From a virus (lineage: Duplodnaviria > Heunggongvirae > Uroviricota > Caudoviricetes), in the IMG/VR virus record IMGVR_UViG_2541047789_000007, positions 1-43,035 of that record: 43,035 nucleotides of DNA. One strand, written 5' to 3'. The notes under the pieces are model-generated. The model searched no databases and had not been told where the DNA came from. It worked only from the letters and a program-made list of their open reading frames with translations. Shown in pieces: positions 18,638 through 36,760 of the stretch. Position numbers and translations under genes: made by a program. Position 1 is the first letter of the stretch. Each line of letters begins with the position of its first letter.

Positions 18638-19764
18638 CAATCAGGAAACACCGCCAGGGCGAAACGATCAATATAACTTTCACCTACAAAGGAGTTAAAT
18701 GTCGTGAGCCTCTTTCCAATCTGGAAGTAACACCAAAGAACATTAAATACGCCGAGCGCACACTCGGCGAAATCCATAATAAGATCGAAAGGGGAACATT
18801 CATTTATGCGGAATATTTTCCCCGTTCTGCTCGTTTGAAAATTTTTGGTAATGCGGCTGCAGGCAAAACGGTAAAAATGTACCTGGACGAATACCTTGAA
18901 ATCTGCGAAACGAGAAAACTTTCACCCTCTACGATTGGTGGTTATAAAAAATGCCGTAGTGCGTTAGCCTCACTCCACATTTGCTCTGCAAGTGAATTAA
19001 CACCAGCAATCCTGAAAGCGTGGATTCAAAGCCAGAAAACGACCTTAAAAACAATTCGCAACCAGTTATCTTTCCTGCGGTCAGCACTTGATGAAGCCGT
19101 AACCGATGGAGTACTTCAAATTAACCCCGTATCGTTGGTAACTGCTTCGCGCTACCAAAGTGGTAAGTCAGAAGCAGAAAGCAGCTACGTGGTTGATCCG
19201 CTATCACCAGCAGAAGTTGATGTATTACTAGCAGCAGCCGGAAACAAACAATGGGAGAATCTGTTCCGGTTCGCTATACATACAGGCCTGCGTAGTTCTG
19301 AATTATGTGCCCTTCGATGGCGTGATATCGACTTTGTTGGAAAAACAGCCCATGTTCAGAGCGCTAGTGTTGTCGGAGTTATCAAAGGAACAAAGACAAA
19401 AGCCGGTACCCGTAAAGTTGAACTGACTGAAGAAGCAATGTTGGCGCTGATAAATCAGAAGCCATTTACATTCATGAAGGATGCTACTGTCTTTGAAGAT
19501 CCAAAGACCAATAAGCCATGGGCAAGTGCTGATGCAATCAGAAAAAAAGCATGGGTGCCAACATTGCGAAAAGCAGGTATTCGTTACAGAAATCCATATC
19601 AAACTAGGCATACATTCGCCACCCGCCATATCAGCCGGGGAGCAAACCTGTTTTGGCTTGCAGCTCAAATGGGGCATAAAGGACCGGAGATGCTTTTCAG
19701 GCACTATGGCTCATATCTGAAGGAATATGATGGACAAACAAGCTTGAAGAAGATAACAATATAA
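18598..19764 (+). CDS. Tyrosine integrase (lambda-type)
   Basis: 388 aa; catalytic R...HxxR...Y (TGLRSSEL, RHTFATRHI, LFRHYGSY). Confidence 0.9.
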   Translation: MGQTKLLKLPRGVTIRKHRQGETINITFTYKGVKCREPLSNLEVTPKNIKYAERTLGEIHNKIERGTFIYAEYFPRSARLKIFGNAAAGKTVKMYLDEYLEICETRKLSPSTIGGYKKCRSALASLHICSASELTPAILKAWIQSQKTTLKTIRNQLSFLRSALDEAVTDGVLQINPVSLVTASRYQSGKSEAESSYVVDPLSPAEVDVLLAAAGNKQWENLFRFAIHTGLRSSELCALRWRDIDFVGKTAHVQSASVVGVIKGTKTKAGTRKVELTEEAMLALINQKPFTFMKDATVFEDPKTNKPWASADAIRKKAWVPTLRKAGIRYRNPYQTRHTFATRHISRGANLFWLAAQMGHKGPEMLFRHYGSYLKEYDGQTSLKKITI

Positions 19765-19778
19765 TCCAAGCATGAAAC

Positions 19779-19805
19779 TATTGGCCACAATTTGTGGCCA
19801 TTTTA
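19779..19805 (+). terminator. Hairpin terminator after int
   Basis: TGGCCAC-aattt-GTGGCCA followed by TTTTA. Confidence 0.45.
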
Positions 19806-19822
19806 CGGAGCAAGATACAAAC

Positions 19823-21556
19823 ATGGCAAATCAAATTACCAAACTAAAAAATATAAATGTTGTGAAGTTTCGCGGACTGAAAAATATAAACATCGAGTTT
19901 GGTTCTCGCCTAACTGTTATTTGTGGTAAAAATGGCACATCTAAATCCACAATTCTTGGCATTATCGCCCAAATATTTAGCTTTACAAAGGACTTTACCA
20001 AAAACCCTGAGACTGATTTAACACAATATAAAACATTAACAAATGGCAGCTTCAAGTCAGCTTTCAGCGAACATTTTAGGCTTTCAGAACAATTTGATGT
20101 TCCTGGTTCAATGGACGTCAAAATTAGTGTCTATGATGGTGCATCGAACAAACATCTTGAAAAACTAACATTAGGTTTATACAGCTACAGTGACAGAGAT
20201 AAATCAAGGCCTGTAGTCAGGGGAAATGATTCAATACCGGAAAAAAACCAAAGTAGAAACGTTACTCATCCTGTTATTTTTTTAAGCTTAGCACGACTTC
20301 TTCCTATTACATTAAGGACTAATTACTCAACACGGGATGTTCAGTACATCAATGAAAATTCTGATGAAATCAGAATGATGAGTAACCAACTCTTACTAAA
20401 AAACAATGGAAGCTCAGTAACAGCAACAAAAGGTACTATCGATTCAATGGTTGTCCATGGTGACAATTATGATCACCAATCAGTATCTGTTGGTGAAGAT
20501 AATGTTGGACAATTAATCCAAGCAATTTTTTCATTTAAAAGATTGAAGGAAACTTATTCTGATTATCATGGCGGAATATTGTTAATTGATGAAGCCGATG
20601 CAGGTCTTTTCCCTGCTGCACAGTTAGAGCTAATTAATATTCTAACTAAAGCAGCAAAACAATACGATCTGCAAATAATCATGACCTCGCACTCTCCATT
20701 AATAATAGAGGATATCTATAATCGTTCAAAACAAGATAGTGATAGCTTTAAAACAATATATCTTACAGACACATATGGAGATATTAAAACAAAGAATAAT
20801 CTTTCATGGACAGATATCCACGCTGATTTACATGTTGAAACTGTAAAAATTAATGATGACATTTGTCTTCCAAAAGCAAATGTATATTTTGAAGACAAAG
20901 AAGGTTTCGACTTTTTCAAACAATTGATAACAGATCGAAAAATAAATAAAATATTAAATCCATTAGGGAATATAAATATTAGCTGCTCTGCCATGCTTGA
21001 CTTAATGGCAAGAAAAATACCAGAATTTACAGCTAAAAGCTTGATCGTCTTAGACGGTGATGTTGTTCACGACAACAGTGCTAATGCAAAAAAAGCCAAA
21101 AAAGAAAAAAACTTATGTTTGCTTCCAAGCACCTTACCTCCAGACCAAATGATTTTTGAGTTTTTATATAATTTACCACCTGATGATGCATATTGGGAAA
21201 ATAAAAATAAATTTACAAAATCTGTTTTTATGAAAACAGCTAAAGACATAATTACAACGCTAAAGATTGGTAACGCTCCGATTGATTTAAAAATCCTTAT
21301 AGATAATTATAAAAAAGTTAACAAAAATCATGGCGGGAGAGTGAGAAAACTGTTTAAAGATTTTGCACATACGACTCAATTTCAGGACCAAGTCAAAGGA
21401 CGAGTTAAAGATAACCCATATCGATATTGGGTCGAGAAAAATCCTGTGCAATCGGATAGCTTCAAGAATGAACTAATAAAGAGTCTTAAAGTTATTATGA
21501 TAAGTGGACATGGTGTCGATTCTGCTACCATCTCATCATATCTGTCAGATAACTAA
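19823..21556 (+). CDS. OLD-like ABC-type ATPase with C-terminal TOPRIM-like region (candidate anti-phage nuclease)
   Basis: Walker A GKNGTSKST, Walker B LLIDEADAGL, TSHSP; C-terminal acidic motifs YFEDKEG and IVLDGD; AT-rich; start trimmed to MANQITK. Confidence 0.55.
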   Translation: MANQITKLKNINVVKFRGLKNINIEFGSRLTVICGKNGTSKSTILGIIAQIFSFTKDFTKNPETDLTQYKTLTNGSFKSAFSEHFRLSEQFDVPGSMDVKISVYDGASNKHLEKLTLGLYSYSDRDKSRPVVRGNDSIPEKNQSRNVTHPVIFLSLARLLPITLRTNYSTRDVQYINENSDEIRMMSNQLLLKNNGSSVTATKGTIDSMVVHGDNYDHQSVSVGEDNVGQLIQAIFSFKRLKETYSDYHGGILLIDEADAGLFPAAQLELINILTKAAKQYDLQIIMTSHSPLIIEDIYNRSKQDSDSFKTIYLTDTYGDIKTKNNLSWTDIHADLHVETVKINDDICLPKANVYFEDKEGFDFFKQLITDRKINKILNPLGNINISCSAMLDLMARKIPEFTAKSLIVLDGDVVHDNSANAKKAKKEKNLCLLPSTLPPDQMIFEFLYNLPPDDAYWENKNKFTKSVFMKTAKDIITTLKIGNAPIDLKILIDNYKKVNKNHGGRVRKLFKDFAHTTQFQDQVKGRVKDNPYRYWVEKNPVQSDSFKNELIKSLKVIMISGHGVDSATISSYLSDN

Positions 21557-21567
21557 TTGATTAAAAA

Positions 21568-21601
21568 GGGTTTTATGTGATGGCCATAAAGCCCTTTTTT
21601 T
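21568..21601 (+). terminator. Rho-independent terminator between OLD-like gene and Dam-like gene
   Basis: GGGTTTTATG-tgatggc-CATAAAGCCC followed by T7. Confidence 0.6.
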
Positions 21602-21635
21602 GATATACTTTAGATCTGACATTTAGAGGTATCAT

Positions 21636-22535
21636 ATGCGTTTTAACACCCCACTTCGCTATCCTGGCGGTAAAGGCAAGCTTGCAAATTTCATGCTTCG
21701 GATTATTGAAGAAAATAATCTTTCGCCTATACATTATGCCGAACCATATGCTGGGGGTGCTGGTTTAGCATTGAAACTGTTACATCTAAATGCAGCTGAA
21801 AAAATCATCCTTAATGATATTAATATTTCTGTTTATGCTTTTTGGCACAGTGTATTAAATCATGCAGATCAATTATGTTCTTTAATTGAAAGAACAGAAG
21901 TTACAATGGATGAATGGTTTAGGCAGAAAGATATAATTAATAATCCTAAAGACCATGATCTTTTAACAATTGGTTTCTCAACCTTTTTTCTCAATAGAAC
22001 AAATCGTTCTGGAATATTAAAAGGTGGTGTAATTGGCGGTAAAAATCAAGAAGGGAAATGGAAGCTTGACGCTCGCTATAATAAGAGTGATTTGATTTCT
22101 CGAATCCATAGAATATCAGAAAATCGTCACAGAATAGATTTATATAACATGGATGCAATTGATTTCATAAAAAAAATAGTTATTCAATTGCCACAAAACT
22201 CATTAACATATTTGGATCCACCTTATTACATAAAAGGTAAAGGCTTATATATCAACCATTATGATCATGATGATCATGTTAGGGTTGCAAAAGTCGTACA
22301 GAATAATATTAAAACGCCTTGGATTGTTTCTTACGATAACACTCCTGAGATCCAAGCTATGTATAAGACATCCTCATTAGTATATGGAATAAACTACAGT
22401 GCTCAAGATCGGTACAAAGGATCTGAGGTAATGTTCTTCAGTGAACGATTGAAAATCTTTAAAACAGATGATCCAACTAAGGTAAAAGCGCCTGTATTTA
22501 AAAGAGGATGTGTTGACGACCACATCCAGACATAA
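21636..22535 (+). CDS. Dam-family N6-adenine DNA methyltransferase (D12 class)
   Basis: Motifs RYPGGKGK, AEPYAGGAGL (FxGxG) and LDPPYY; 299 aa; AT-rich. Confidence 0.8.
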   Translation: MRFNTPLRYPGGKGKLANFMLRIIEENNLSPIHYAEPYAGGAGLALKLLHLNAAEKIILNDINISVYAFWHSVLNHADQLCSLIERTEVTMDEWFRQKDIINNPKDHDLLTIGFSTFFLNRTNRSGILKGGVIGGKNQEGKWKLDARYNKSDLISRIHRISENRHRIDLYNMDAIDFIKKIVIQLPQNSLTYLDPPYYIKGKGLYINHYDHDDHVRVAKVVQNNIKTPWIVSYDNTPEIQAMYKTSSLVYGINYSAQDRYKGSEVMFFSERLKIFKTDDPTKVKAPVFKRGCVDDHIQT

Positions 22536-22606
22536 AAGGAGCCGCAAAAGATCCGCAGAATAAAATGGTTAGTATTAATCGTTTTATTTCAGCTAATTAT
22601 AAAAAT

Positions 22607-22640
22607 ACGGACTCGGGTTCAACTCCCGCCAGCTCCACCA
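22607..22640 (+). other. ssrA: ssrA (tmRNA) 3'-end fragment ending CCA: att core shared by the two elements
   Basis: CGGACtCGGGTTCAACTCCCGCCAGCTCCACCA has a tRNA-like T-arm plus acceptor 3' strand and CCA and matches the recalled E. coli ssrA 3' end; upstream sequence is unrelated AT-rich prophage DNA. Confidence 0.6.
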
Positions 22641-22686
22641 AAATTCTCCATCGGTGATTACCAGAGTCATCCGATGAAGTCCTAAG

Positions 22687-22719
22687 AGCCCGCACGGCGC
22701 AAGCCCTGCGGGCTTTTTT
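22687..22719 (+). terminator. Rho-independent terminator (ssrA terminator)
   Basis: GCCCGCA...TGCGGGC hairpin followed by T6. Confidence 0.6.
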
Positions 22720-22773
22720 GTGCCTTGAATTTGTCCCGCGAAGTCTGATGCCAACTAATTAAATCCGAACCTT

Positions 22774-22826
22774 TTAGGCACCTTGTTAGGCACCTCATAA
22801 AGCTTTATTGTTTTTGAGGTGCCTAA
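22774..22826. promoter_or_regulatory. Repeated TTAGGCACC motifs upstream of intA
   Basis: Direct repeats at 22774-22782 and 22786-22794 and an inverted copy GAGGTGCCTAA at 22816-22826, 20 bp before the intA ATG. Confidence 0.4.
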
Positions 22827-22844
22827 AACTATGGAAACCCGGCA

Positions 22845-24086
22845 ATGGCAAGACAAACCAAACCTCTATCCGTTAAAGAAATCGAATCTGCTAAACCCAA
22901 GGAAGCGGACTACGTTCTCTATGATGGCGATGGCCTTGAGCTACTGATCAAATCCAGCGGGAGTAAAATCTGGCAGTTTCGCTACATTCGCCCTGTCACC
23001 AAGAAACGAGCGAAGAAGAGCATAGGCCCCTACCCGTCAGTTACGCTTGCCGATGCTAGAAACTATCGCGCAGAGTCTCGTTCTCTTCTGGCGAAACAAA
23101 TCGACCCTCAGGAACATCAGCAAGAACAACTTCGCAGTTCGCTGGAAGCTAAAACCAATACTTTCCAACTCGTAGCTGAACGATGGTGGAATGTGAAGAA
23201 AGCCAGCGTGACAGAGGACTATGCCGACGATATCTGGCGCTCTCTTGAAAGAGATGTCTTTCCTGCAATTGGCGACATTAGCGTTACAGATATTAAAGCT
23301 CACACACTGGTTCAGGCCGTCCAACCGGTTCAGGCCAGAGGAGCACTGGAAACCGTTCGTCGCCTGTGCCAACGCATTAATGAGGTCATGATCTATGCCC
23401 AAAACACAGGACTGATTGATGCTGTTCCTAGCGTTAATATCGGTAAAGCCTTCGAGAAGCCTCAGAAAAAGAACATGCCCAGCATTCGACCGGATCAGCT
23501 ACCTCAACTGATGCAGACAATGCGAACAGCCAGCATTAGCCTTTCCACACGCTGCCTGTTCATGTGGCAACTTCTTACTATTACCCGCCCTGCCGAAGCG
23601 GCTGAAGCTCGCTGGGAAGAGGTAGACATAGAAGCGCGAGAGTGGAAGATTCCTGCAGCACGCATGAAAATGAACCGCGACCATACTGTTCCATTGTCAG
23701 ATAAAGCAATTGCGATACTGGAGATGATGAAGCCGTTAAGTGAAAATCGAGAATTTATCTTTCCCAGCCGTATCAAGCCAAACCAGCCGATGAACAGTCA
23801 AACCGTTAACGCATCGCTAAAACGCGCAGGTTTTAGTGGAGTGCTCGTTTCGCATGGGCTGAGATCAATTGCCAGTACGGCTCTTAATGAACAAGGCTTT
23901 CCGCCTGATGTTATTGAGGCAGCACTTGCCCATGTGGACAAGAATGAGGTTCGCCGTGCTTATAACCGCAGCGATTACCTAGAACAGCGTCGCCCGATGA
24001 TGCAATGGTGGGCTGACTTCGTTATGGCTGCTGAGCACGGAAGTATGATTGGAGATGGCATTCGAGGTATAAGGCTTGTCGGCTAA
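22845..24086 (+). CDS. intA: P4-type tyrosine integrase IntA
   Basis: 413 aa starting MARQTKPL; immediately downstream of ssrA 3' end as in CP4-57. Confidence 0.9.
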   Translation: MARQTKPLSVKEIESAKPKEADYVLYDGDGLELLIKSSGSKIWQFRYIRPVTKKRAKKSIGPYPSVTLADARNYRAESRSLLAKQIDPQEHQQEQLRSSLEAKTNTFQLVAERWWNVKKASVTEDYADDIWRSLERDVFPAIGDISVTDIKAHTLVQAVQPVQARGALETVRRLCQRINEVMIYAQNTGLIDAVPSVNIGKAFEKPQKKNMPSIRPDQLPQLMQTMRTASISLSTRCLFMWQLLTITRPAEAAEARWEEVDIEAREWKIPAARMKMNRDHTVPLSDKAIAILEMMKPLSENREFIFPSRIKPNQPMNSQTVNASLKRAGFSGVLVSHGLRSIASTALNEQGFPPDVIEAALAHVDKNEVRRAYNRSDYLEQRRPMMQWWADFVMAAEHGSMIGDGIRGIRLVG

Positions 24087-24126: not shown

Positions 24127-24721
24127 ATCCAAATTCACATAAAAATTACTACAACTGACCATTTCTTTTTTTTCTGCTTACAGTGTCTTCGAAAGCCTGC
24201 TTCACACTTTCAACATTTGTAGACCACGATTTTAAAATAGTATCGGCTAAGGCTTCCTGACTGGTTGTTGGCATTCGATATTTTTTATCGTGCTTATTAA
24301 TATTCAATTTTGACTCCTCTATAAATAGCCACAAAGGTTCAATGAGAACATTCACCGCTGCAGCTTTACTTCTCCATCCTTCTTCAGGAGACAAATCATT
24401 TATAAGTTCCACCAGTTTTTCCTGAATAGGTCGATACATTTCAGATTTTTTTATCCCACCTTTCCTTCCTGATCTATTCCTGATAGATAAAAGTTTAGTT
24501 TGCTTATCTACTGAGATCTTATACCAAACCATCCCCATGCTTTTATCAAATAACTCAGATGCTTTTTTAAATGCTTCAAATGCAACATCCTCGTTGTCTG
24601 ATATAACTAATTCACCCCATTTATAGCACTTCAGTGCATACTTAAGGTGAAATTTAAAAAGCTCATCCATAGAGATATATTCAGGGATAATGACAGCAAC
24701 ATTATCGGTAATGACTCCAAC

Positions 24722-25225
24722 TTATTGATAGTGTTTTATGTTCAGATAATGCCCGATGACTTTGTCATGCAGCTCCACCGATTTTGAAAACGACAGCGAC
24801 TTCCGTCCCAGCCGTGCCAGGTGCTGCCTCAGATTCAGGTTATGCCGCTCAATTCGCTGCGTATATCGCTTGCTGATTACGTGCAGCTTTCCCTTCAGGC
24901 GGGATTCATACAGCGGCCAGCCATCCGTCATCCATATCACCACGTCAAAGGGTGACAGCAGGCTCATAAGACGCCCCAGCGTCGCCATAGTGCGTTCACC
25001 GAATACGTGCGCAACAACCGTCTTCCGGAGACTGTCATACGCGTAAAACAGCCAGCGCTGGCGCGATTTAGCCCCGACATAGCCCCACTGTTCGTCCATT
25101 TCCGCGCAGACGATGACGTCACTGCCCGGCTGTATGCGCGAGGTTACCGACTGCGGCCTGAGTTTTTTAAGTGACGTAAAATCGTGTTGAGGCCAACGCC
25201 CATAATGCGGGCAGTTGCCCGGCAT
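24722..25225 (-). CDS. insB: IS1 transposase InsB
   Basis: 167-aa ORF starting [16 protein letters not shown]. Confidence 0.9.
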
Positions 25226-25419
25226 CCAACGCCATTCATGGCCATATCAATGATTTTCTGGTGCGTACCGGGTTGAGAAGCGGTGTAAGTGAACTGCAGT
25301 TGCCATGTTTTACGGCAGTGAGAGCAGAGATAGCGCTGATGTCCGGCGGTGCTTTTGCCGTTACGCACCACCCCGTCAGTAGCTGAACAGGAGGGACAGC
25401 TGATAGAAACAGAAGCCAC
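25144..25419 (-). CDS. insA: IS1 InsA
   Basis: 91-aa ORF starting [32 protein letters not shown]. Confidence 0.9.
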
Positions 25420-25932
25420 TGGAGCACCTCAAAAACACCATCATACACTAAATCAGTAAGTTGGCAGCATCACCAACATTATCTCTCAGAAGTTCTGCCT
25501 CCAATGTACTCCAATAACGTTCAATAAGCTTAGCTAACTCGATGCTTTTCTCATTTGATGGAAAGTCCTTATGAGAGTCAGTGTACCTATGCTCCTTCAA
25601 ATAAGATGATGAATACAATAATATTCCGGGACCAAACTTCTTGGAGTTCCAGACCCGCTCTTTCATCATAGTCAACTCAGCCTGCATATCTGTATGCTTT
25701 TCATCCAGAACTTGGGCGTACATGCTCCATTCACAGTCCTTCATCTCACTGGAGAGAGCACTGCATTTTCGACTAATTTCTTCACTAAAAATTTTAAGAG
25801 AAAACATTTATCTTCACAATATCAACAAGTTAAACCCGTTAAAAATAAACCTTTGCTAGCCGTATTTTTTCGAAGAATCCTTGCAGCTATTCTTTGCTGG
25901 AACCAAACTGAGCTAACAAGAGGCAAACTAGT

Positions 25933-29059: not shown

Positions 29060-32000
29060 ATGAGTGTGTTGAGTTGGGCAATAGACCTATGCGGGAAGAT
29101 GGAAGCGTGGCTGGTTAAGCGCCAAGCAAAAGATCAACTACAGAGCGCAGAGCAGGGGTTGAGTCTGATGGAAGAAGAATTAGGTGATCGCTATGACACC
29201 TTAGCGCCGAAAACCATCAATGATGCCAGTATGCGAGAGTATTTCATTGCCCTGAAATACGCCTTGTCTCAGAAAGACGTAAGAAACATTGCCATTACAG
29301 GGAGCTATGGCGCAGGGAAAAGTACGGTTATTTCATCATTTATGAAATATCACTGCGATGATAAATACATCAATGTATCTCTTGCGGGATTCGATATGAC
29401 GGAAAATGAAACAACCGTCAGCCCAACTCACCAAGAGGTTGAACTCAGTATCCTGCAACAAATTCTTTATAAAGAGAATAGAGAGAAGCTTCCCGACTCA
29501 AGGATAGACAGAATAATCGACAGGGGCCCTCACTATGTCAGAGGAACTTATCGAGCCTTACTTAAAGTCATTACCCCCATCGCGGTAGCCGCATTTATTA
29601 TCTATTTCAAAACAATTGCAGAGTTTCTAAGCCTTCCGCCATCCTGGATCGAGGTATTTAATGCACACTACATCATAAAAGGCTTTATATTAGTTTCGCT
29701 GGCTTTTACCGCGCTGTACTTTATAACTGCCAGCGCATCTCGAATCGGTATTTTTGATAAGAAACTCAAGCTGAGCAAGATCGCGCTTTTAAGCGGGGAT
29801 GTTGAGGCAAGCGAGCAAGAGACACCATCCTTATTGAATAATTGCCTTGACGAGATCGTGTATTTTTTCACCAAGCTGAAATATAAGGTAGTCATCTTTG
29901 AAGATCTTGACAGGTTAGGGACGCCTGAGATTTTCGTTAAGTTGCGTGAAATTAACAAAATAGTTAACAATAATATTGTCGATGGCAGTCCGGTCAGGTT
30001 TGTTTATGCGGTAAGAGATGACCTATTCCTGGGCGCTGATGCCAGAACTAAATTCTTTGATTTCATTCTCCCTGTCATTCCATTTATGGACAGCAGAAAC
30101 GCGTTTACCTTATTAAAAAGGAAAATGTTACTCAATACGCATAACGATACATATTTGAAAGACATTTCTGTACATATAAATGATATGCGCAGCCTGCAGA
30201 ATTTGGTCAATGAGTACCATGTATTCAGTAATATCGTTGATAACGGCAACGACAAAATCAAACTGTTATCGCTGGTATTTTATAAAAATATCTATGCATT
30301 AGACTACTACCTTACCGATAAGAAAACAGGGGTTTTATATTCATTTATTCGCGACTATCGCACCCGAAAACTTCACCATAATCATTTTGACTCTCTGGAA
30401 ACAAAACTGGATCTTTTACAGGCCGAAATAGAACATCTTAATTATGAGCCTATGTATGACCATAGGGGAATTAGAGAGGAAATAGTTTGTCGATATATTC
30501 CTAAGATACTCTGGGATGGCGTTCATTTTGGTACGGGAAATGGATACAGTAATTTTTATCCTTTAGGAACTTTGGCTTTAATTGATGATGAAAATAGTTT
30601 TTTGGAGTTTTTATCGCAAAAGGAAAACTTATATATAGGCTACTTTGTTAGTCATCAGGGGCATTCACTTTCACTTTTTGATAGAGCATTAAGAGAACAA
30701 CTAAAAGAAGAATACCTGAAACGAAAAACGAAAATGGGTAAAGATAAAAACTCGGCTTTTAGTGAACTGCAAATAAAAATAAAGAAAATTAAAGAGTCAA
30801 TAAAATTAAAAAACACCCTTTCGCTGCGAGAACTTACGCTAATAATCGGGCGTGAGAAATTTGCAGAGATTGCGCAGGGGTATCTTGAGGCGATGGAGGG
30901 GCATGACTTCGTTTCTAAGCAGCAGCTCCATGCTTTGTGTGCTGATATGCGCAATGGCGGTTTAGACGCCTTATATCTGCTGCTGTCCGATGGTCTGGTG
31001 ATGCAAGACTTCATGGCCTACCGCTCTATTTTCCATGAAGGATCGATGACCGTAAATGATAACGACTTTTTGAAAGCCGTCGGTCAGGATCTGAGCTACG
31101 CAACCTCAAACGGTGAATATTTTATCGATGACGAGAACAGAGTCATCAGCGAATTGGTTGAACATAACCGTATTTATGCCGATGGCGCGCTTCATCATCA
31201 ACTGGTGACTCATTTGATTGATAACGCGGACGAACATCTGGCGGGCATGTTCGCTTCGCTATTCAGTCAGTCTGATGAACACATCCTTGCTGTTTTCTCT
31301 GAGCTTTATACACGATTTGGCAAACCCGAAACCTTCGATAAGTTAATCGTTACCGCGCTGCAAAAAAATGGTTATCTTGACAGAATGGTTGCCGTTCTCG
31401 CGGGACAGCTGGGTGAAAAATTCACCAACGATATTGCTATCAGCGTGATAGCCTGCGTATCACCTGCACATGCGCAAGATAAACTGCAATACCGCCAGCT
31501 TATTCATTCGCTGGGGTGCCGTATCATCTCTCAGCTCACCGAAGAAAATCAGGAAGCGTTTATGCGTCATGTACAACAGGCGGATGCACGCTATGACGAG
31601 CTGTTCGAACCAATAACGCCAACGGAGCGGTATTGCCTACAGTTTACTGCACAAAACAGCCTTTATCAGTTAACTCGACACAATGTTGGCATTGCCGTTT
31701 CATGTCTTATTGACAACATAACGCCTGAAGAGGCGGAAAGGAAACCCTGGACACTCGCCTATGAACATGAACTCAGCACGGTTTCTGACTACTTCAGTCA
31801 AAACATTGATATATTCGTCAGGGATGTGTTTATCTACTCCGCTGAGGATGGCGACTGTATCCGCTACGTTCTGACCCGTACCTCTCTAAGCGACGATTCC
31901 AAAGGCGATGTCGTCAGAAACATGACCTTCTCGTTTTCCGACCTGTCCGGGATATTGGCTAAAGCAGTATTTACCGAAGACCAGCTAACGATTTCCTATC

Positions 32001-32899
32001 ACGACCTGTTTTACCGATATGACCGCGTCGCACCGGGATGGGGGGCGCTGATAGACTATATCTGTGAAGATTGCGACATGGAGATACTGACGGCTTATGT
32101 GACAAAGCATGCGCCTGTATTGGGGCAATCATCCCCGGAAGTTTATGATGGCGACCGCTATGACCTGCTGTATATGAAAATTATCTGCAATGATGACCTA
32201 GAAGAACAGGTTTATCAGAGCCTAGTTGCACCGATTGAGATTAACATGCGGGAAATTGATGAGCGGCTTAGCGCGCGTCATTTCTGCACCCTGGTTGCCA
32301 TGCAGAAGCTGCCTCTCGACGCGGATGTGTATGAAAAAATTGCGGCTCAATATGCGGTTCAAGATGAAAATATAAGTGATGCCTTCGTCTATTGGTTCAG
32401 CCAGTACAAAAGTGAGTTTTTGACGCAGCCCGAATTCTATCTAAGAAAAGAAAAAGACGCGCGCTTCTTTAATGTCATGCTCACAAAAATCATAACCTAC
32501 GCGCACTTTACCGTGCAAGAGAGAGCGGACCTGGTGTCGCTATTCATTGATTATTTCATTGCGTCTGATATCGCTGACCTTAATTACCCTCATGATGTCC
32601 TGCTGCAGGTGTTTAACAGTACCAATAATGAAGAATTCAAGGTCATGCTGTTTACGCGATTTATTGTGACAGGCCTGAATAAACATCAACTGGCCGGGCT
32701 ATGTCATCAACTGGGCGAAGACGAATTGAGTAATGTATTCATCAATCGAACCCAGGCAACAATTGCTGTTATAAACAGGGAACGCGTGATATCAATTCTT
32801 GAACATCTGCAAGCAGTACGCATCATAAGAGGTTTTCAGGAGCGTGAAAGTGGGAAAATCTCCGTCTTTATCGAACCCGATCTGGAGGATAAAGATTAG
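29060..32899 (+). CDS. Giant KAP/YobI-type P-loop NTPase with transmembrane insertion (1279 aa)
   Basis: Walker A ITGSYGAGKST, then two hydrophobic helices, then Walker B KVVIFEDLDRLG; about 900-aa C-terminal region without recognisable motifs. Confidence 0.6.
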   Translation: MSVLSWAIDLCGKMEAWLVKRQAKDQLQSAEQGLSLMEEELGDRYDTLAPKTINDASMREYFIALKYALSQKDVRNIAITGSYGAGKSTVISSFMKYHCDDKYINVSLAGFDMTENETTVSPTHQEVELSILQQILYKENREKLPDSRIDRIIDRGPHYVRGTYRALLKVITPIAVAAFIIYFKTIAEFLSLPPSWIEVFNAHYIIKGFILVSLAFTALYFITASASRIGIFDKKLKLSKIALLSGDVEASEQETPSLLNNCLDEIVYFFTKLKYKVVIFEDLDRLGTPEIFVKLREINKIVNNNIVDGSPVRFVYAVRDDLFLGADARTKFFDFILPVIPFMDSRNAFTLLKRKMLLNTHNDTYLKDISVHINDMRSLQNLVNEYHVFSNIVDNGNDKIKLLSLVFYKNIYALDYYLTDKKTGVLYSFIRDYRTRKLHHNHFDSLETKLDLLQAEIEHLNYEPMYDHRGIREEIVCRYIPKILWDGVHFGTGNGYSNFYPLGTLALIDDENSFLEFLSQKENLYIGYFVSHQGHSLSLFDRALREQLKEEYLKRKTKMGKDKNSAFSELQIKIKKIKESIKLKNTLSLRELTLIIGREKFAEIAQGYLEAMEGHDFVSKQQLHALCADMRNGGLDALYLLLSDGLVMQDFMAYRSIFHEGSMTVNDNDFLKAVGQDLSYATSNGEYFIDDENRVISELVEHNRIYADGALHHQLVTHLIDNADEHLAGMFASLFSQSDEHILAVFSELYTRFGKPETFDKLIVTALQKNGYLDRMVAVLAGQLGEKFTNDIAISVIACVSPAHAQDKLQYRQLIHSLGCRIISQLTEENQEAFMRHVQQADARYDELFEPITPTERYCLQFTAQNSLYQLTRHNVGIAVSCLIDNITPEEAERKPWTLAYEHELSTVSDYFSQNIDIFVRDVFIYSAEDGDCIRYVLTRTSLSDDSKGDVVRNMTFSFSDLSGILAKAVFTEDQLTISYHDLFYRYDRVAPGWGALIDYICEDCDMEILTAYVTKHAPVLGQSSPEVYDGDRYDLLYMKIICNDDLEEQVYQSLVAPIEINMREIDERLSARHFCTLVAMQKLPLDADVYEKIAAQYAVQDENISDAFVYWFSQYKSEFLTQPEFYLRKEKDARFFNVMLTKIITYAHFTVQERADLVSLFIDYFIASDIADLNYPHDVLLQVFNSTNNEEFKVMLFTRFIVTGLNKHQLAGLCHQLGEDELSNVFINRTQATIAVINRERVISILEHLQAVRIIRGFQERESGKISVFIEPDLEDKD

Positions 32900-32925
32900 C
32901 GATTTAGCCTTTTCAGGCCGGGACC

Positions 32926-32949
32926 GGCAGGTCTCTGCCTGTTTTTGTT
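32926..32949 (+). terminator. Candidate terminator after NTPase gene
   Basis: GGCAG-gtct-CTGCC followed by TGTTTTTGTT. Confidence 0.4.
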
Positions 32950-33369
32950 AATCTGTTAACGAACTTAGATTGTCTCTATACATGTTAGATTCTTTCAGAA
33001 ATATATTGCTGAACAATCCGCTCCTGGCACGAAGCGGACCGCCTCAATAACTGAAGGTCCGCTGTGAGCGAGGACCGGACATTAGCTCTAACATTCTTTT
33101 GGGCAGAACTTTGTCAGTTATTTTGATAAATGAGCATTAAGCGGATTATCTGGGATATTGCAAAATTTTTAATCAAGTGGTCAAATTCACTCCCCCCTAT
33201 ACTGAACATCATGGATATTCTGTGCCTAACTAGGTCCGGGACAGTGACGTTTTCCTGCTCGACTGAGTCAGCCAAATGCTCCACTGTTCACTCACCAAGT
33301 AGTGAGATAATTCATAACTAGAGAATTCCGACTGCCTCAGGTATATAGTCGTGGTGTATTACCAATTAT

Positions 33370-34470
33370 TTATTTGATGTTGGACTCAAAAATCTCAACG
33401 AGTTCTTTGACTTTTTTCATGCAATCAATATTAACACACCTATATTTATCATTATATTTTATAAGTGACACTAAATATGAGCGATAACCTTTTAATTTAT
33501 TCTGTAATTGATCATCAGCATACTTAGAGTAAAAATCAAATTTATTCCCATACCTTAGGGTAAACTTCCTATGGTTTAAATAGAATACGCTCTCCATTAT
33601 ATACATTGGGGATTTTTGTTTTTTGAGCAATGCGGAAACTTTTTTCAACGGTTTAAGTTTTTTATCAGATAGCCTGATGTTACCAACAGGCTTCTCTTTG
33701 TACACATGAAAAAAGTCTTTCTTTCTTTTCCTGTTCTGTACTACATAACCGTTAAGCGATATAGTGTTCTCAGTCGCTCTCCTTTTCTTTTTTTTCAACT
33801 TGAGAGAAAGTATAGAGACGAAGATAGAAATATCCTTTTCAAATTGCTCAGAATGCAGGTACTTACTGTTATCACAAGAAAAAAGCATATCATCTGCATA
33901 ACGTGAGTAGATAATCCCTTTATCTTCACACAATTTTTGAATAAGAATATCTACTCTTCTGAATATTATGTTTGATATTACAGGGGAGGATGAAAATCCA
34001 ATAGGTAACACTTCTTTCCCACGAAAGTCTTTGTCAATATAAGTGTCACTAACCTTGTGAGTAACAGAAATATATGCAATATCTAGAGCTGAGTATTTAT
34101 TTCCATTCTTTTCATTGTTGAAGTGCTGAGCGAGTAGGCTTTTTACTTCATGCGTAGGTATTGAATGGAAGAATTTTTTGATATCCAATCGTAGGAAGTA
34201 ATATCCTTGGATATGGGGCCTTAGAAAGTCGTAATAAGATTTACCTTGAACAAAGCCGCATGCGGATGAGTTAATGGGACTTTTATCTAGAACAAACTTA
34301 GTTATTCTATCATTTATACGCTTGTGTTCAGAGTCTCTAGAAATTTCAAAAAAGTTGTCGCAACCAACTTTAAACTCTCTGACGGCAGGAGTGAAATCAT
34401 TTAGAAGATCTTCATTGCCTTTAAGAATCGCTTTCTTAAAAAAGTCATCGCTAATATTATTTTTTATCAT
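33370..34470 (-). CDS. Reverse transcriptase (retron-like / defence-associated RT)
   Basis: RT motifs: motif A LRLDIKKFFHSI, motif B LPIGFSSSPVISNIIF, motif C YADD; 366 aa; AT-rich. Confidence 0.8.
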   Translation of the reverse strand: MIKNNISDDFFKKAILKGNEDLLNDFTPAVREFKVGCDNFFEISRDSEHKRINDRITKFVLDKSPINSSACGFVQGKSYYDFLRPHIQGYYFLRLDIKKFFHSIPTHEVKSLLAQHFNNEKNGNKYSALDIAYISVTHKVSDTYIDKDFRGKEVLPIGFSSSPVISNIIFRRVDILIQKLCEDKGIIYSRYADDMLFSCDNSKYLHSEQFEKDISIFVSILSLKLKKKKRRATENTISLNGYVVQNRKRKKDFFHVYKEKPVGNIRLSDKKLKPLKKVSALLKKQKSPMYIMESVFYLNHRKFTLRYGNKFDFYSKYADDQLQNKLKGYRSYLVSLIKYNDKYRCVNIDCMKKVKELVEIFESNIK

Positions 34471-34473
34471 AGA

Positions 34474-34673
34474 GCTTCAACCCGATACAAAAGAACACCA
34501 TTACACCGTAGGTGTGTACTTCGACGCATACTAATCAGAGTGACTAGTTTAGCAGTCATTAGGACTATGCCCAAAGCTAAAAGAAGCTGGACTCCCTCAA
34601 GCAAAGAGCGGGAGAGGCAAGCTCTCAGATACTTGTCGAAACTCATATCTCCCCTCTACTATCGGGTTGAAGC
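34474..34673 (-). ncRNA. Candidate retron msr-msd non-coding RNA bracketed by 14-bp inverted repeats (a1/a2-like)
   Basis: Perfect inverted repeat GCTTCAACCCGATA (34474-34487) / TATCGGGTTGAAGC (34660-34673) enclosing about 170 nt with internal hairpins; lies between OLD gene stop and RT start. Confidence 0.4.
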
Positions 34674-36760
34674 ATACGAATGATATCATAAAACTCGGGG
34701 AAATAAACTTTAAATACTGTCCCAAATGGTTGATTTTTAGCTAAAGACTCTTTTTCAACGTATCCGACGGCATAATTTAGGAAGCTTGTAGTCCATCCAT
34801 CGGTTTTATCAAGGTATTTGTTGTGTACAGTGTTCTCTTCTAATAATTTCATTAGCATTTTTGCATGCTTGGAAGTGTATCGCAACTTGCCGCTTACCTT
34901 TCTCTTATTATTTAAAGTTTGTTTGTATGTTTCAACATTGAAGTGGCTATAGTCAGTTAATGCCATTGACTTTCCATTAAAAATGACTCTAATGTAATCA
35001 ATGAGCATATCCTCTGTAACATACTTGCTTCGTTTTATACGCTTCAATGTAGAATCAAAATTAGAATTATGTTCACTGTCTAACCATCCATATACAATTT
35101 TTGAGCTATGTTTCTGGATTAAACAACCTTCTAATGTTGTTCTATTTAGATAAATATTCTGATCAAGCAACCTGCTTTTAACAGCAGTAAATACCGACTC
35201 AAAGTCAGACTCATCTAGAAAAGTTTGAGTTGTATTATTTACTTTTACTTCTTTATTTATAACGGATAACAACGTCTCAATATTTTCTCGTTTTGTCTTG
35301 TACTTCTTGCTAAAACCCAATTTGTATTTATTAAGCTCTGATTTTAAAGTATCTGGTTTAAAGTTAAAATAGCTACCGTTTTTTTCTAGTTTTATAGATA
35401 AACTACGAGGCTCACCTTTAATTGATATTGCTTTGTCTGCATCGAATAAGAATAAGTATGGTATAGTAGAGTTTGAGTATGATGGATTAACTCGCTCACC
35501 AACGACATTGCTACTACATTTATAAACATCTATATTTCTTAAATGAGGGAAATGTTCAGTCATCTTCATGTTTCCAAAAGCTTCCAACTCACTTTCACCC
35601 TCTACAAATAGGATAAAGTCGCTAAAAAACAATCTTGCTTCATTGTCACTAAAAATATTTATAAAGCTCTCGTTGTCATAAGTGGAATTTAATATGCTAA
35701 TCGTAGTTCTAGCATCAACTTTCTTCTGAAAACAATAAACACGTTGTTTTTGCCTGAACTTTTTAATTATCTCTTTTACTATATTCGGCGAATGAGTTGT
35801 TATAAATACTTTAGGCCTAGTAACTCGATCATCTTTTTTTTCATTATAATTGTAACTAGTAAATATATCTTGGACTAGAACCTCGTTCATTTTAGGGTGT
35901 AGACCTAGCTCTGGTTCATCAATAAAAACAAATGGTGTTATATATTCTCTTCTTGAAATTGTAATTAGTATCCTAAGAAAGGTTTTTATGAAATGAAATG
36001 AATTTGTTCCATCTGAGTGAAACTTTAAATCATTTTCGTCTATCTCAAACCGATAACCTTTTAATCCAGCCTTAATATAGCTCAACACCTTTTCTTTCTG
36101 AGAACTTGGCTTCGTAGATATCGTTCTATTTAAGTCTGAAATATAATTCCTATAAGAATTATCACCACTCGAATTAATTGAATTATCAAAAAAATCAATT
36201 ACAGATTGGTCATCAATTTTAGACAGATTGAAAGACTTCACTCTTGATATAAGATCCCACAAACTGTCCCATTCATGTAAATCCATATGTCTAGGTTCAA
36301 CATGGAAAAATGGAAATAGATAAAGAATAAGGTTTAAAGTTTGTTTGTCTTTAGTTGACCACTTAACTTTACCATCGCTGTATATGTTCAGTGTCAAAGT
36401 ATAAGTGGTGTAATCATTATCGTAGCGCGTTAATGCAAATATGCTTCGTTTATGGAGAGGAACCAATTTTCGGATGATAAAATCAAAATACTTATTTTTA
36501 GGTTGATTCCTGGCTATCCTATAAATTCTGGTCATATCATAAGTTACTGATATAGAACCTTTATACGAATAATTAGAGTTTAGCTTTGGCGGTAACTCTT
36601 CTTTGCCTTCTAGTTTATTGTAGAAGAATTTAAGAACTTTAAGTAAGTTAGACTTTCCAACGTTATTGCGACCGACAATGCAGTTTAAGTCGTTTAAGTT
36701 ATCAACATTTAGCTCATCGAATGATAACAAGTTGGTGATTTTTATAGCCTGTACAGTCAT
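34643..36760 (-). CDS. OLD-family ATPase/TOPRIM nuclease (705 aa)
   Basis: Walker A GRNNVGKSN, Walker B FVFIDEPELGLHP, TTHSP, TOPRIM LFVEGESELEAF and LFLFDADKA; AT-rich. Confidence 0.8.
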   Translation of the reverse strand: MTVQAIKITNLLSFDELNVDNLNDLNCIVGRNNVGKSNLLKVLKFFYNKLEGKEELPPKLNSNYSYKGSISVTYDMTRIYRIARNQPKNKYFDFIIRKLVPLHKRSIFALTRYDNDYTTYTLTLNIYSDGKVKWSTKDKQTLNLILYLFPFFHVEPRHMDLHEWDSLWDLISRVKSFNLSKIDDQSVIDFFDNSINSSGDNSYRNYISDLNRTISTKPSSQKEKVLSYIKAGLKGYRFEIDENDLKFHSDGTNSFHFIKTFLRILITISRREYITPFVFIDEPELGLHPKMNEVLVQDIFTSYNYNEKKDDRVTRPKVFITTHSPNIVKEIIKKFRQKQRVYCFQKKVDARTTISILNSTYDNESFINIFSDNEARLFFSDFILFVEGESELEAFGNMKMTEHFPHLRNIDVYKCSSNVVGERVNPSYSNSTIPYLFLFDADKAISIKGEPRSLSIKLEKNGSYFNFKPDTLKSELNKYKLGFSKKYKTKRENIETLLSVINKEVKVNNTTQTFLDESDFESVFTAVKSRLLDQNIYLNRTTLEGCLIQKHSSKIVYGWLDSEHNSNFDSTLKRIKRSKYVTEDMLIDYIRVIFNGKSMALTDYSHFNVETYKQTLNNKRKVSGKLRYTSKHAKMLMKLLEENTVHNKYLDKTDGWTTSFLNYAVGYVEKESLAKNQPFGTVFKVYFPEFYDIIRMLQPDSRGEI

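Follow-up and report, generated by a model that had tools for sequence, protein, structure and literature searches.

Arrays of mobile elements inserted one behind the other at the tmRNA gene were reportedly catalogued by Williams in 2003 ('Traffic at the tmRNA gene'). Tandem arrays at tDNAs are also recognised by Islander, with a general model and an estimate of their prevalence: 125 tandems of at least two elements were counted, and ssrA was the most enriched target (PMC4383910). The signature of such arrays is a regenerated tDNA, a displaced fragment of the target gene, and one integrase per element (PMC4383910). The locus analyzed here is a structure of this already known kind, a textbook tandem at the tmRNA gene, with no difference in kind from such arrays. 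Specific to it is the pairing of a lambdoid phage, whose integrase groups with those of LLS and phiNP, with a CP4-57-type island.

Close relatives of both partners have been described. A classic occupant of ssrA is CP4-57 of Escherichia coli K-12 (gene order ssrA-intA-yfjH-alpA-yfjI-yfjJ ... yfjZ-ypjF). It is treated as a cryptic prophage (PMC10107115). Its excision leaves ssrA with T357 deleted, which inactivates trans-translation and switches rescue to ArfA (PMC10107115). On the phage side, Escherichia phage LLS (PQ299149) and Citrobacter phage phiNP (OR565852) are temperate, have an attP derived from tmRNA, and share the order xis-int-cargo-att with the prophage studied here. In LLS, a 'tmRNA pseudogene' attP is annotated in GenBank just downstream of int and a cargo ORF, and it consists of a 39-nt tmRNA pseudogene and a trailer. 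The record of phiNP is cut at the same core, GGTTCAACTCCCGCCAGCTCCACCA, which is identical in LLS, phiNP, and our sequence.

We studied a stretch of 43,035 nt (hereafter the window) from the IMG/VR virus record IMGVR_UViG_2541047789_000007, assigned to the Caudoviricetes. It holds the right-hand part of a lambdoid prophage and the left part of a CP4-57-family island, with the end of ssrA at the seam. The features are the following.

1-22640 (+): right-hand ~22.6 kb of a lambdoid prophage (similarity to the ssrA-linked prophages in H1, WP5, and JJ1887)
18392-18637 (+): candidate excisionase gene, overlapping the start of int (assigned by position)
18598-19764 (+): prophage tyrosine integrase, ssrA-specific (Pfam, orthology to LLS, identity to phiNP)
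19772-22535 (+): AT-rich cargo of two genes, from int to attR (Pfam, PADLOC)
19772-21556 (+): AAA_15/AAA_21 ATPase (Pfam)
21636-22535 (+): D12-class adenine methyltransferase (Pfam; PADLOC PD-Lambda-5_B, 5e-124)
22536-22607 (+): non-coding right-end P arm of 72 nt, from the methylase stop to the core (identical arm in relatives)
22608-22640 (+): ssrA 3'-terminal fragment, displaced (alignment with annotated ssrA, sub-threshold Rfam tmRNA match, uniqueness)
22616-22641 (+): putative strand-exchange segment for the phage integrase (comparison of junctions)
22641-43035 (+): left ~20.4 kb of a CP4-57-family island (99.9-100% identity to five E. coli islands, gene order relative to K-12, family matches)
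22641-22844 (+): island-supplied ssrA trailer and island left arm (identical downstream of intact ssrA in Z0117EC0036, E2348/69, and others)
22649-22676 (+): first of two trailer hairpins (fold)
22684-22720 (+): terminator hairpin and T-run (terminator scan, fold)
22774-22782 and 22786-22794 (+): direct repeats TTAGGCACC, with an inverted copy at 22818-22826
22845-24086 (+): IntA-type (P4-family) tyrosine integrase of 413 aa (Pfam, NCBIfam, identity to K-12)

The first-pass annotation, made from the letters of the window, had described a tmRNA 3'-end fragment followed by a hairpin terminator, an IntA-type integrase, and a CP4-57-like island, and preceded by AT-rich cargo and a lambdoid integrase with no tmRNA body. 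This description holds. An alignment with annotated E. coli ssrA genes shows that the fragment at 22608-22640 is the final 33 nt of the 363-nt gene. It spans the 5' strand of the T-stem, the T-loop, the 3' strand of the T-stem, the 3' strand of the acceptor, and the CCA, and the sole mismatch is the T at 22613, which is a G in ssrA. The segment CGGGTTCAACTCCCGCCAGCTCCACCA (22614-22640, + strand) occurs a single time in the window, and none of 100 dinucleotide shuffles matched it, even with three mismatches permitted. Of the Rfam tmRNA model, just the terminal ~37 positions can be aligned with confidence, and the match reaches 26.8 bits for a gathering score of 47. Neither ARAGORN nor Rfam at gathering thresholds detected a tmRNA or a tRNA in the whole 43-kb window, which rules out a complete ssrA close by in the window, including immediately upstream of the fragment. 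Hence, positions 22608-22640 are a piece of a gene and not a gene. Another Rfam match, to IsrM at 22631-22719, reaches 32 bits, where the gathering score is 376, and is confined to the terminator hairpin; we rejected it as an IsrM gene.

To the right of the fragment, the island is found at 99.9-100% identity in five complete E. coli genomes, including Z0117EC0036 and A0 34/86. These genomes lack the phage. In them, smpB and an intact ssrA directly abut the island, and the match to the window starts exactly at 22608. The order of genes in the window is intA, a yfjH-like gene split by IS1, alpA, yfjI, yfjJ, a Tmn/YobI NTPase, a retron (I-B/Eco8 RT and effector), yfjP, and yfjQ, and further toward the right yfjX, yfjY, ypjJ, and yfjZ. 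The island ends ~0.5 kb past the window, and ypjF is likewise outside. The conserved CP4-57 backbone (alpA, yfjI with DUF3987, yfjJ, yfjP, yfjQ, antirestriction, RadC-like, and DUF987 genes, and the yfjZ-ypjF toxin-antitoxin pair) was confirmed from the annotation of the identical island, from Pfam, with matches to DUF3987 (yfjI) and YagK_YfjJ_C, and from the gene order of K-12.

The island integrase has the Pfam domains Arm-DNA-bind_3, Phage_int_M, and Phage_integrase, matches NCBIfam PRK09692 over its full length (922 bits, cut-off 434), and is 85% identical to K-12 IntA over 413 aa. The distance from the end of ssrA to the start of intA is 204 nt here and 203 nt in K-12, and alpA, yfjI, yfjJ, yfjP, yfjQ, yfjX, yfjY, ypjJ, and yfjZ are common to both islands. 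They differ in the central cargo, which comprises the Tmn/YobI NTPase and retron Eco8 here and abpAB, yfjM, and rnlAB in K-12, in the IS1 within the yfjH-like gene, and in that the island of the window is attached to the 33-nt fragment only and not to a functional ssrA. The trailer behind the fragment folds strongly (90 nt, -38 kcal/mol, z = -5.3), and its second hairpin, with the T-run, is the terminator that had been read from the sequence. The TTAGGCACC repeats in the left arm are candidate arm sites of IntA, and the pair recurs at the right end of the island in L006. This right end, from the 99.9-100% identical island of Z0117EC0036, carries a degenerate ssrA fragment, TTCAGACTCCGCCAGCCCACCA (L006:34874-34895), with three indels. 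One is the missing T357, which is also absent from the right-end fragment in K-12 (PMC10107115, Table 1), and there are two more. Such degeneracy may hinder the excision of the island. The two ends of the island have TTCA...CCACCA in common.

To the left of the fragment, the window aligns with the ssrA-linked prophages of H1, WP5, and JJ1887 at 81-90% coverage and 97-98% identity. It includes the terminase, lysis, Q, replication, immunity, xis-like, int, and cargo genes, whereas the structural half, the left end of the prophage, and its intact ssrA are beyond the window. The integrase has the Pfam domains Arm-DNA-bind_2 and Phage_integrase and is 86% identical in amino acids to the integrase of free phage LLS (gp32). 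The candidate excisionase resembles, in position and in its overlap with int, the ORFs annotated as excisionases in phiNP and LLS, and it had no match in Pfam or NCBIfam. From int to att, phiNP is 84.5% identical in DNA, including the ATPase and methylase cargo, whereas LLS has a different cargo of a single ORF. Other genes occupy this slot in sister prophages. The cargo has a GC content of 0.33. In PADLOC, the matches listed for the ATPase are PtuA/AriA/GajA-type ATPases, and PD-Lambda-5_A is absent among the 25 listed.

The far end of such a prophage can be observed in WP5-W18-ESBL-11 (hereafter WP5). This genome has the junction of the window at 97.7% identity, and smpB with a complete ssrA at the other end of the prophage, ~47 kb away, on the other side of the tail-fibre genes and of a restriction-modification pair. 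The fragment and the intact gene have the same orientation in this genome. The first-pass annotation had placed the full ssrA at the far end of the prophage. This is seen in WP5, and the copy of the genome from which the window comes is expected at the same place, judging from relatives at 97-98% identity. As in other tandem arrays, the newest element regenerates an intact tDNA, a displaced 3' fragment of the target gene stands at the distal end of the prophage in the orientation of the intact gene, and each member has its own integrase, here Int with Arm-DNA-bind_2 and IntA with Arm-DNA-bind_3 of the P4 type. Members of such arrays also have a target-gene fragment each; that of the phage is in the window, and that of the island would lie ~0.5 kb past it, judging from the degenerate copy in Z0117EC0036. 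The attP with a copy of the 3' end of the gene, another trait of these arrays, is found in LLS and is reflected in the attL of WP5. The attachment of the prophage at ssrA is thus attested by the far-end gene in WP5, by the module at ssrA in JJ1887, and by the tmRNA pseudogene in the attP of LLS.

When the junctions are compared side by side, the four sites are, base for base, those expected of one reciprocal exchange.

attB (island-only strains): ssrA body ...CGGACGCGGG (tabulated as ...TTTCGGACGCGGG), core, AAATTCTCC
attP (free phage LLS): phage arm ...ACGGGCGCGGG, core, ATCATGATTGG
attR (window, WP5): phage arm ...ACGGACTCGGG (tabulated as ...ATACGGACTCGGG), core, AAATTCTCC
attL (WP5): ssrA body, core, ATCATGATTGG

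The attL of WP5 consists of the wild-type ssrA followed by a trailer of the phage type, and lysogens retain a wild-type ssrA at attL. We considered whether the ATCATGATTGG... that follows ssrA in lysogens is chromosomal DNA and rejected this, since free phage LLS has it. It is carried by the phage, yet homologous to the native trailer. A homologous trailer and terminator in the P' arm are shared with LLS and phiNP. Given these junctions, the layout of WP5, and the four states of the site (see below), the fragment is at once the core of the attR of the prophage and of the attL of the island.

The same comparison delimits the crossover. Substitutions on the phage side are confined to positions left of GGTTCAAC, namely T22613 in the window, GCTGG in phiNP, and ACATGGG in AREA_497, and those of relatives extend to the equivalent of 22615. 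In LLS, phiNP, and the window, the leftmost 6-12 nt of the segment derived from ssrA have substitutions proper to each phage. On the other side, the flanks part one base past the CCA (CCACCA plus A, then AAATTC versus ATCATG). Because the substitutions lie to the left and the flanks diverge to the right, strand exchange by the phage integrase probably took place within about 22616-22641. Since the ends of the island share TTCA...CCACCA, both integrases would act on essentially one short piece of ssrA.

The P arm is identical in WP5, JJ1887, and 10 IMG/VR contigs, where six or more distinct right flanks follow it. A single 11-mer, AAAGGAGCCGC at 22535-22545, emerged as an arm-type repeat common to the P and P' arms. 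It is missing from the P arm of LLS, and we make no claim for it as an integrase arm site. A 12-mer, TTCAGCTAATTA, present in both the P arm of the phage and the right arm of the island, is probably a chance match (E ~0.24). The attP in its free form is seen in LLS, whereas the window contains the integrated attR alone. An exact search of IMG/VR for an attP reconstructed from the P arm of the window, the core, and a P' arm of the WP5 type gave no match. A shorter pattern restricted to the core matched 14 loci in IMG/VR, all integrated junctions and none a free attP. The exact 51-nt pattern of P arm and core had no match in the GTDB species-representative genomes.

We then searched for the different states of the site in 5426 complete E. 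coli genomes. All four occur in the species: empty, with the island only, with the phage only, and with both. The empty site (smpB-ssrA-glaH) is exemplified by Combat2C1. A synthetic junction representing the empty site is covered to 80% or more in around 1100 of the 5426 genomes, a count that includes some occupied genomes such as the phage-only JJ1887 (88%). The island is directly on ssrA in 636 genomes. JJ1887 carries the phage with the same ATPase-methylase cargo and without the island, and its attR leads straight into glaH. Both elements with the exact junction of the window are found in seven complete genomes, and additionally in five IMG/VR contigs. An island-type flank is present in 699-706 genomes, of which ~60-70 have it detached from the body of ssrA, the latter number being the approximate difference of two counts and not a tally per genome. 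In IMG/VR, the module int-ATPase-methylase-P arm, at 98-100% amino acid identity and with the T-type core, precedes at least six different right flanks, including P4-type integrases that are merely 46-48% identical to the IntA of the window. As a near-identical module adjoins such diverse right flanks, the phage appears to be the recently mobile partner.

These results support the interpretation of the first-pass annotation, in which a lambdoid phage integrated into ssrA upstream of a resident island. The integration and the shared junction fragment are borne out by the comparisons, and the order of arrival is deduced. We are highly confident that the locus is a tandem in which the island came first and the phage second, and that the 33-nt tail of ssrA was displaced by site-specific integration. 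An island of the CP4-57 family, encoding a P4-type IntA integrase, would already have been attached at the 3' end of ssrA, having supplied the last ~23 nt of the gene, its trailer, and its terminator. A temperate lambdoid phage would then have arrived with an attP in which a phage-borne duplicate of the final ~33-39 nt of ssrA precedes a trailer and a terminator, and its tyrosine integrase would have made the crossover, probably inside GGTTCAACTCCCGCCAGCTCCACCA(A). The body of ssrA would thereby have been kept at the tail-fibre end of the phage, completed by phage DNA and outside the window, and the former 3' end of ssrA would have been displaced with the island by ~47 kb, to the int end. The expected phage circle would have as attP the P arm, ACGGACTCGGGTTCAAC...CCACCA, and ATCATGATTGG. 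Either element could in principle excise alone, provided that it is competent to do so at present.

The order of the two events is the point at which another history deserves attention. A lambdoid prophage could have been first at ssrA, with the P4-type island integrating later into the attR fragment as a secondary attB. This would produce an identical final map, since the structure is symmetrical as to history and is by itself no proof of either order. The fragment holds the whole segment common to the ends of the island (TTCA...CCACCA), which makes it a possible attB for IntA, and the phage-only intermediate exists (JJ1887). We nevertheless consider this order improbable. The island, 99.9-100% identical, is on an intact ssrA in the five phage-free genomes, its flank is directly on ssrA in the 636 genomes mentioned above, and the occurrence of the phage module beside many unrelated elements points to a recent spread onto older residents. 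To our knowledge, islands of the CP4-57 type are cryptic and lack their own transfer genes, which also speaks against a late arrival of the island. A near-identical phage that sits beside diverse residents makes the arrival of the island before the phage the likelier order.

Two further explanations have far less in their favor. The phage and the island could move as one composite, with the internal ssrA fragment as a relic of its origin. Recombination between the intact ssrA (the phage attL) and the right-end fragment of the island could indeed excise both, and the exact junction is common to the seven complete genomes. Yet each part is found alone at the same site, the phage is also paired with other partners, and the integrases are separate and of different families. 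The composite would also amount to ~68 kb (~47 kb of prophage and ~21 kb of island), probably more than a lambdoid head can hold. We regard this explanation as very unlikely. As for a coincidental match or a chimeric assembly without biological meaning, its only argument is that the intact gene is outside the window. It is refuted, with hardly any residual doubt, by the shuffles (0 of 100), by an alignment in which the breakpoint is, to the base, the end of ssrA homology in island-only strains, and by the recurrence of the junction in seven independently finished genomes and five IMG/VR contigs.

The tandem of island and phage fixes the boundaries of two separate units with separate integrases: the prophage ends on the right at 22640 and the island starts on the left at 22641. 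The chief value of the analysis is this clean, resolved annotation, in which an orphan tmRNA-like string is explained. It also allows one modest, and the sole, forward-looking point, the insulation of ssrA from the excision switch described for CP4-57. We suggest tentatively, and with some reserve, that the intervening prophage breaks the link between the island and the functional tmRNA gene, leaving a lysogen without the 'rescue switch' driven by excision. Because the attL of the island is the orphan fragment and not the gene, excision of the island would alter the fragment only: it would recombine 22608-22640 with the delta-T right end of the island and leave the ssrA ~47 kb away untouched. 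This idea comes from the geometry of recombination and is conditional on the island still excising. If it is true, a later excision of the phage could return a defective 3' end to ssrA. The site also appears as one where elements stack and defence cargo gathers, with a PD-lambda-5-like pair on the phage, and Tmn and retron Eco8 on the island.

Some minor observations concern the annotation of such loci. Gene finders pass over the orphan tmRNA-like string. Over ~150 nt, the P' arm of the phage shares 91% identity with the trailer and terminator that ssrA natively has on the chromosome. Because of this resemblance, phage-only lysogens are flanked by repeats of ~185 bp that extend beyond the core alone.

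The P' arm, the phage-borne ssrA trailer on the other side of attP, spans about 150 nt after the CCA, terminator included, and is 91% identical to the native chromosomal ssrA trailer. The native copies compared with it were those of empty-site strains and of the island right end, and the loci in this comparison were L003 (the attL of E. coli WP5-W18-ESBL-11, reverse strand below 26814), L009:2565-2720, L006:34896-35050 (E. coli Z0117EC0036), and L011:2621-2770. The free Escherichia phage LLS also carries the arm. Given the resemblance between the P' arm and the native trailer, lysogens carrying the phage alone therefore have flanking repeats of about 185 bp. In IMG/VR contigs (L013-L026), at least six different sequences follow the same phage right end. 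Several of these downstream flanks have a look-alike terminator of their own (AAGCCCGCACAGCACAAGCTCTGCGG) and encode divergent P4-type integrases with 46-87% identity to the IntA of the window.

Excision of CP4-57 in K-12 leaves a one-base loss in ssrA, delta-T357, which inactivates tmRNA (PMC10107115). The same loss (CGCCAGC-CCACCA) is common to the displaced ssrA fragments of AREA_497 and Z0117EC0036, at these positions:

L005:8035-8056, delta-T357 fragment at the phage/island junction of AREA_497
L006:34874-34895, delta-T357 fragment at the right-hand end of the Z0117EC0036 island

Delta-T357 recurs often in displaced ssrA fragments; the fragment of the window itself retains the T.

The prophage and the island both carry cargo, located in the window as follows:

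19772-22535, AAA ATPase and Dam-like methylase, between the phage int and attR
29060-32899, Tmn/YobI-type NTPase of 1279 aa, island central cargo (29060-36760)
33370-34470, minus strand, reverse transcriptase of a retron I-B/Eco8, island central cargo
34643-36760, minus strand, ATPase-Toprim effector of the same retron pair, island central cargo

The methylase between int and attR matches the PADLOC model PD-Lambda-5_B (5e-124), and no match of the ATPase to PD-Lambda-5_A is found among the 25 best PADLOC matches listed. According to PMC9519451, PD-lambda-5 is a prophage RM+Abi system in compacted form. Since sister ssrA prophages have in the same slot either an AAA ATPase with RloB or a single unknown ORF, this slot looks like a variable defence hotspot. 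Another DNA methyltransferase is encoded in the late region of the prophage (6313-7365, minus strand; PADLOC MTase_II, 1.6e-151).

The CP4-57 of K-12 carries abpAB, yfjM, and rnlAB where the island of the window has the Tmn/YobI NTPase and the retron Eco8; no Rfam family matching a retron ncRNA was found in the scan of the window. The island is 99.96-100% identical to that of Z0117EC0036 apart from the placement of IS1, which here splits a yfjH-like hypothetical gene:

24149-24670, minus strand, one half of the yfjH-like ORF
24707-25470, IS1 copy
25448-25807, minus strand, other half of the yfjH-like ORF

In the Z0117EC0036 island this gene is unbroken and IS1 lies instead between yfjI and yfjJ. 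Finally, the 12-mer TTCAGCTAATTA is present in the phage P arm (window 22589-22600) and in the island right arm (L006:34866-34877), slightly left of the ssrA-derived core in both. With an E of about 0.24 in a small search, this sharing is probably a coincidence.
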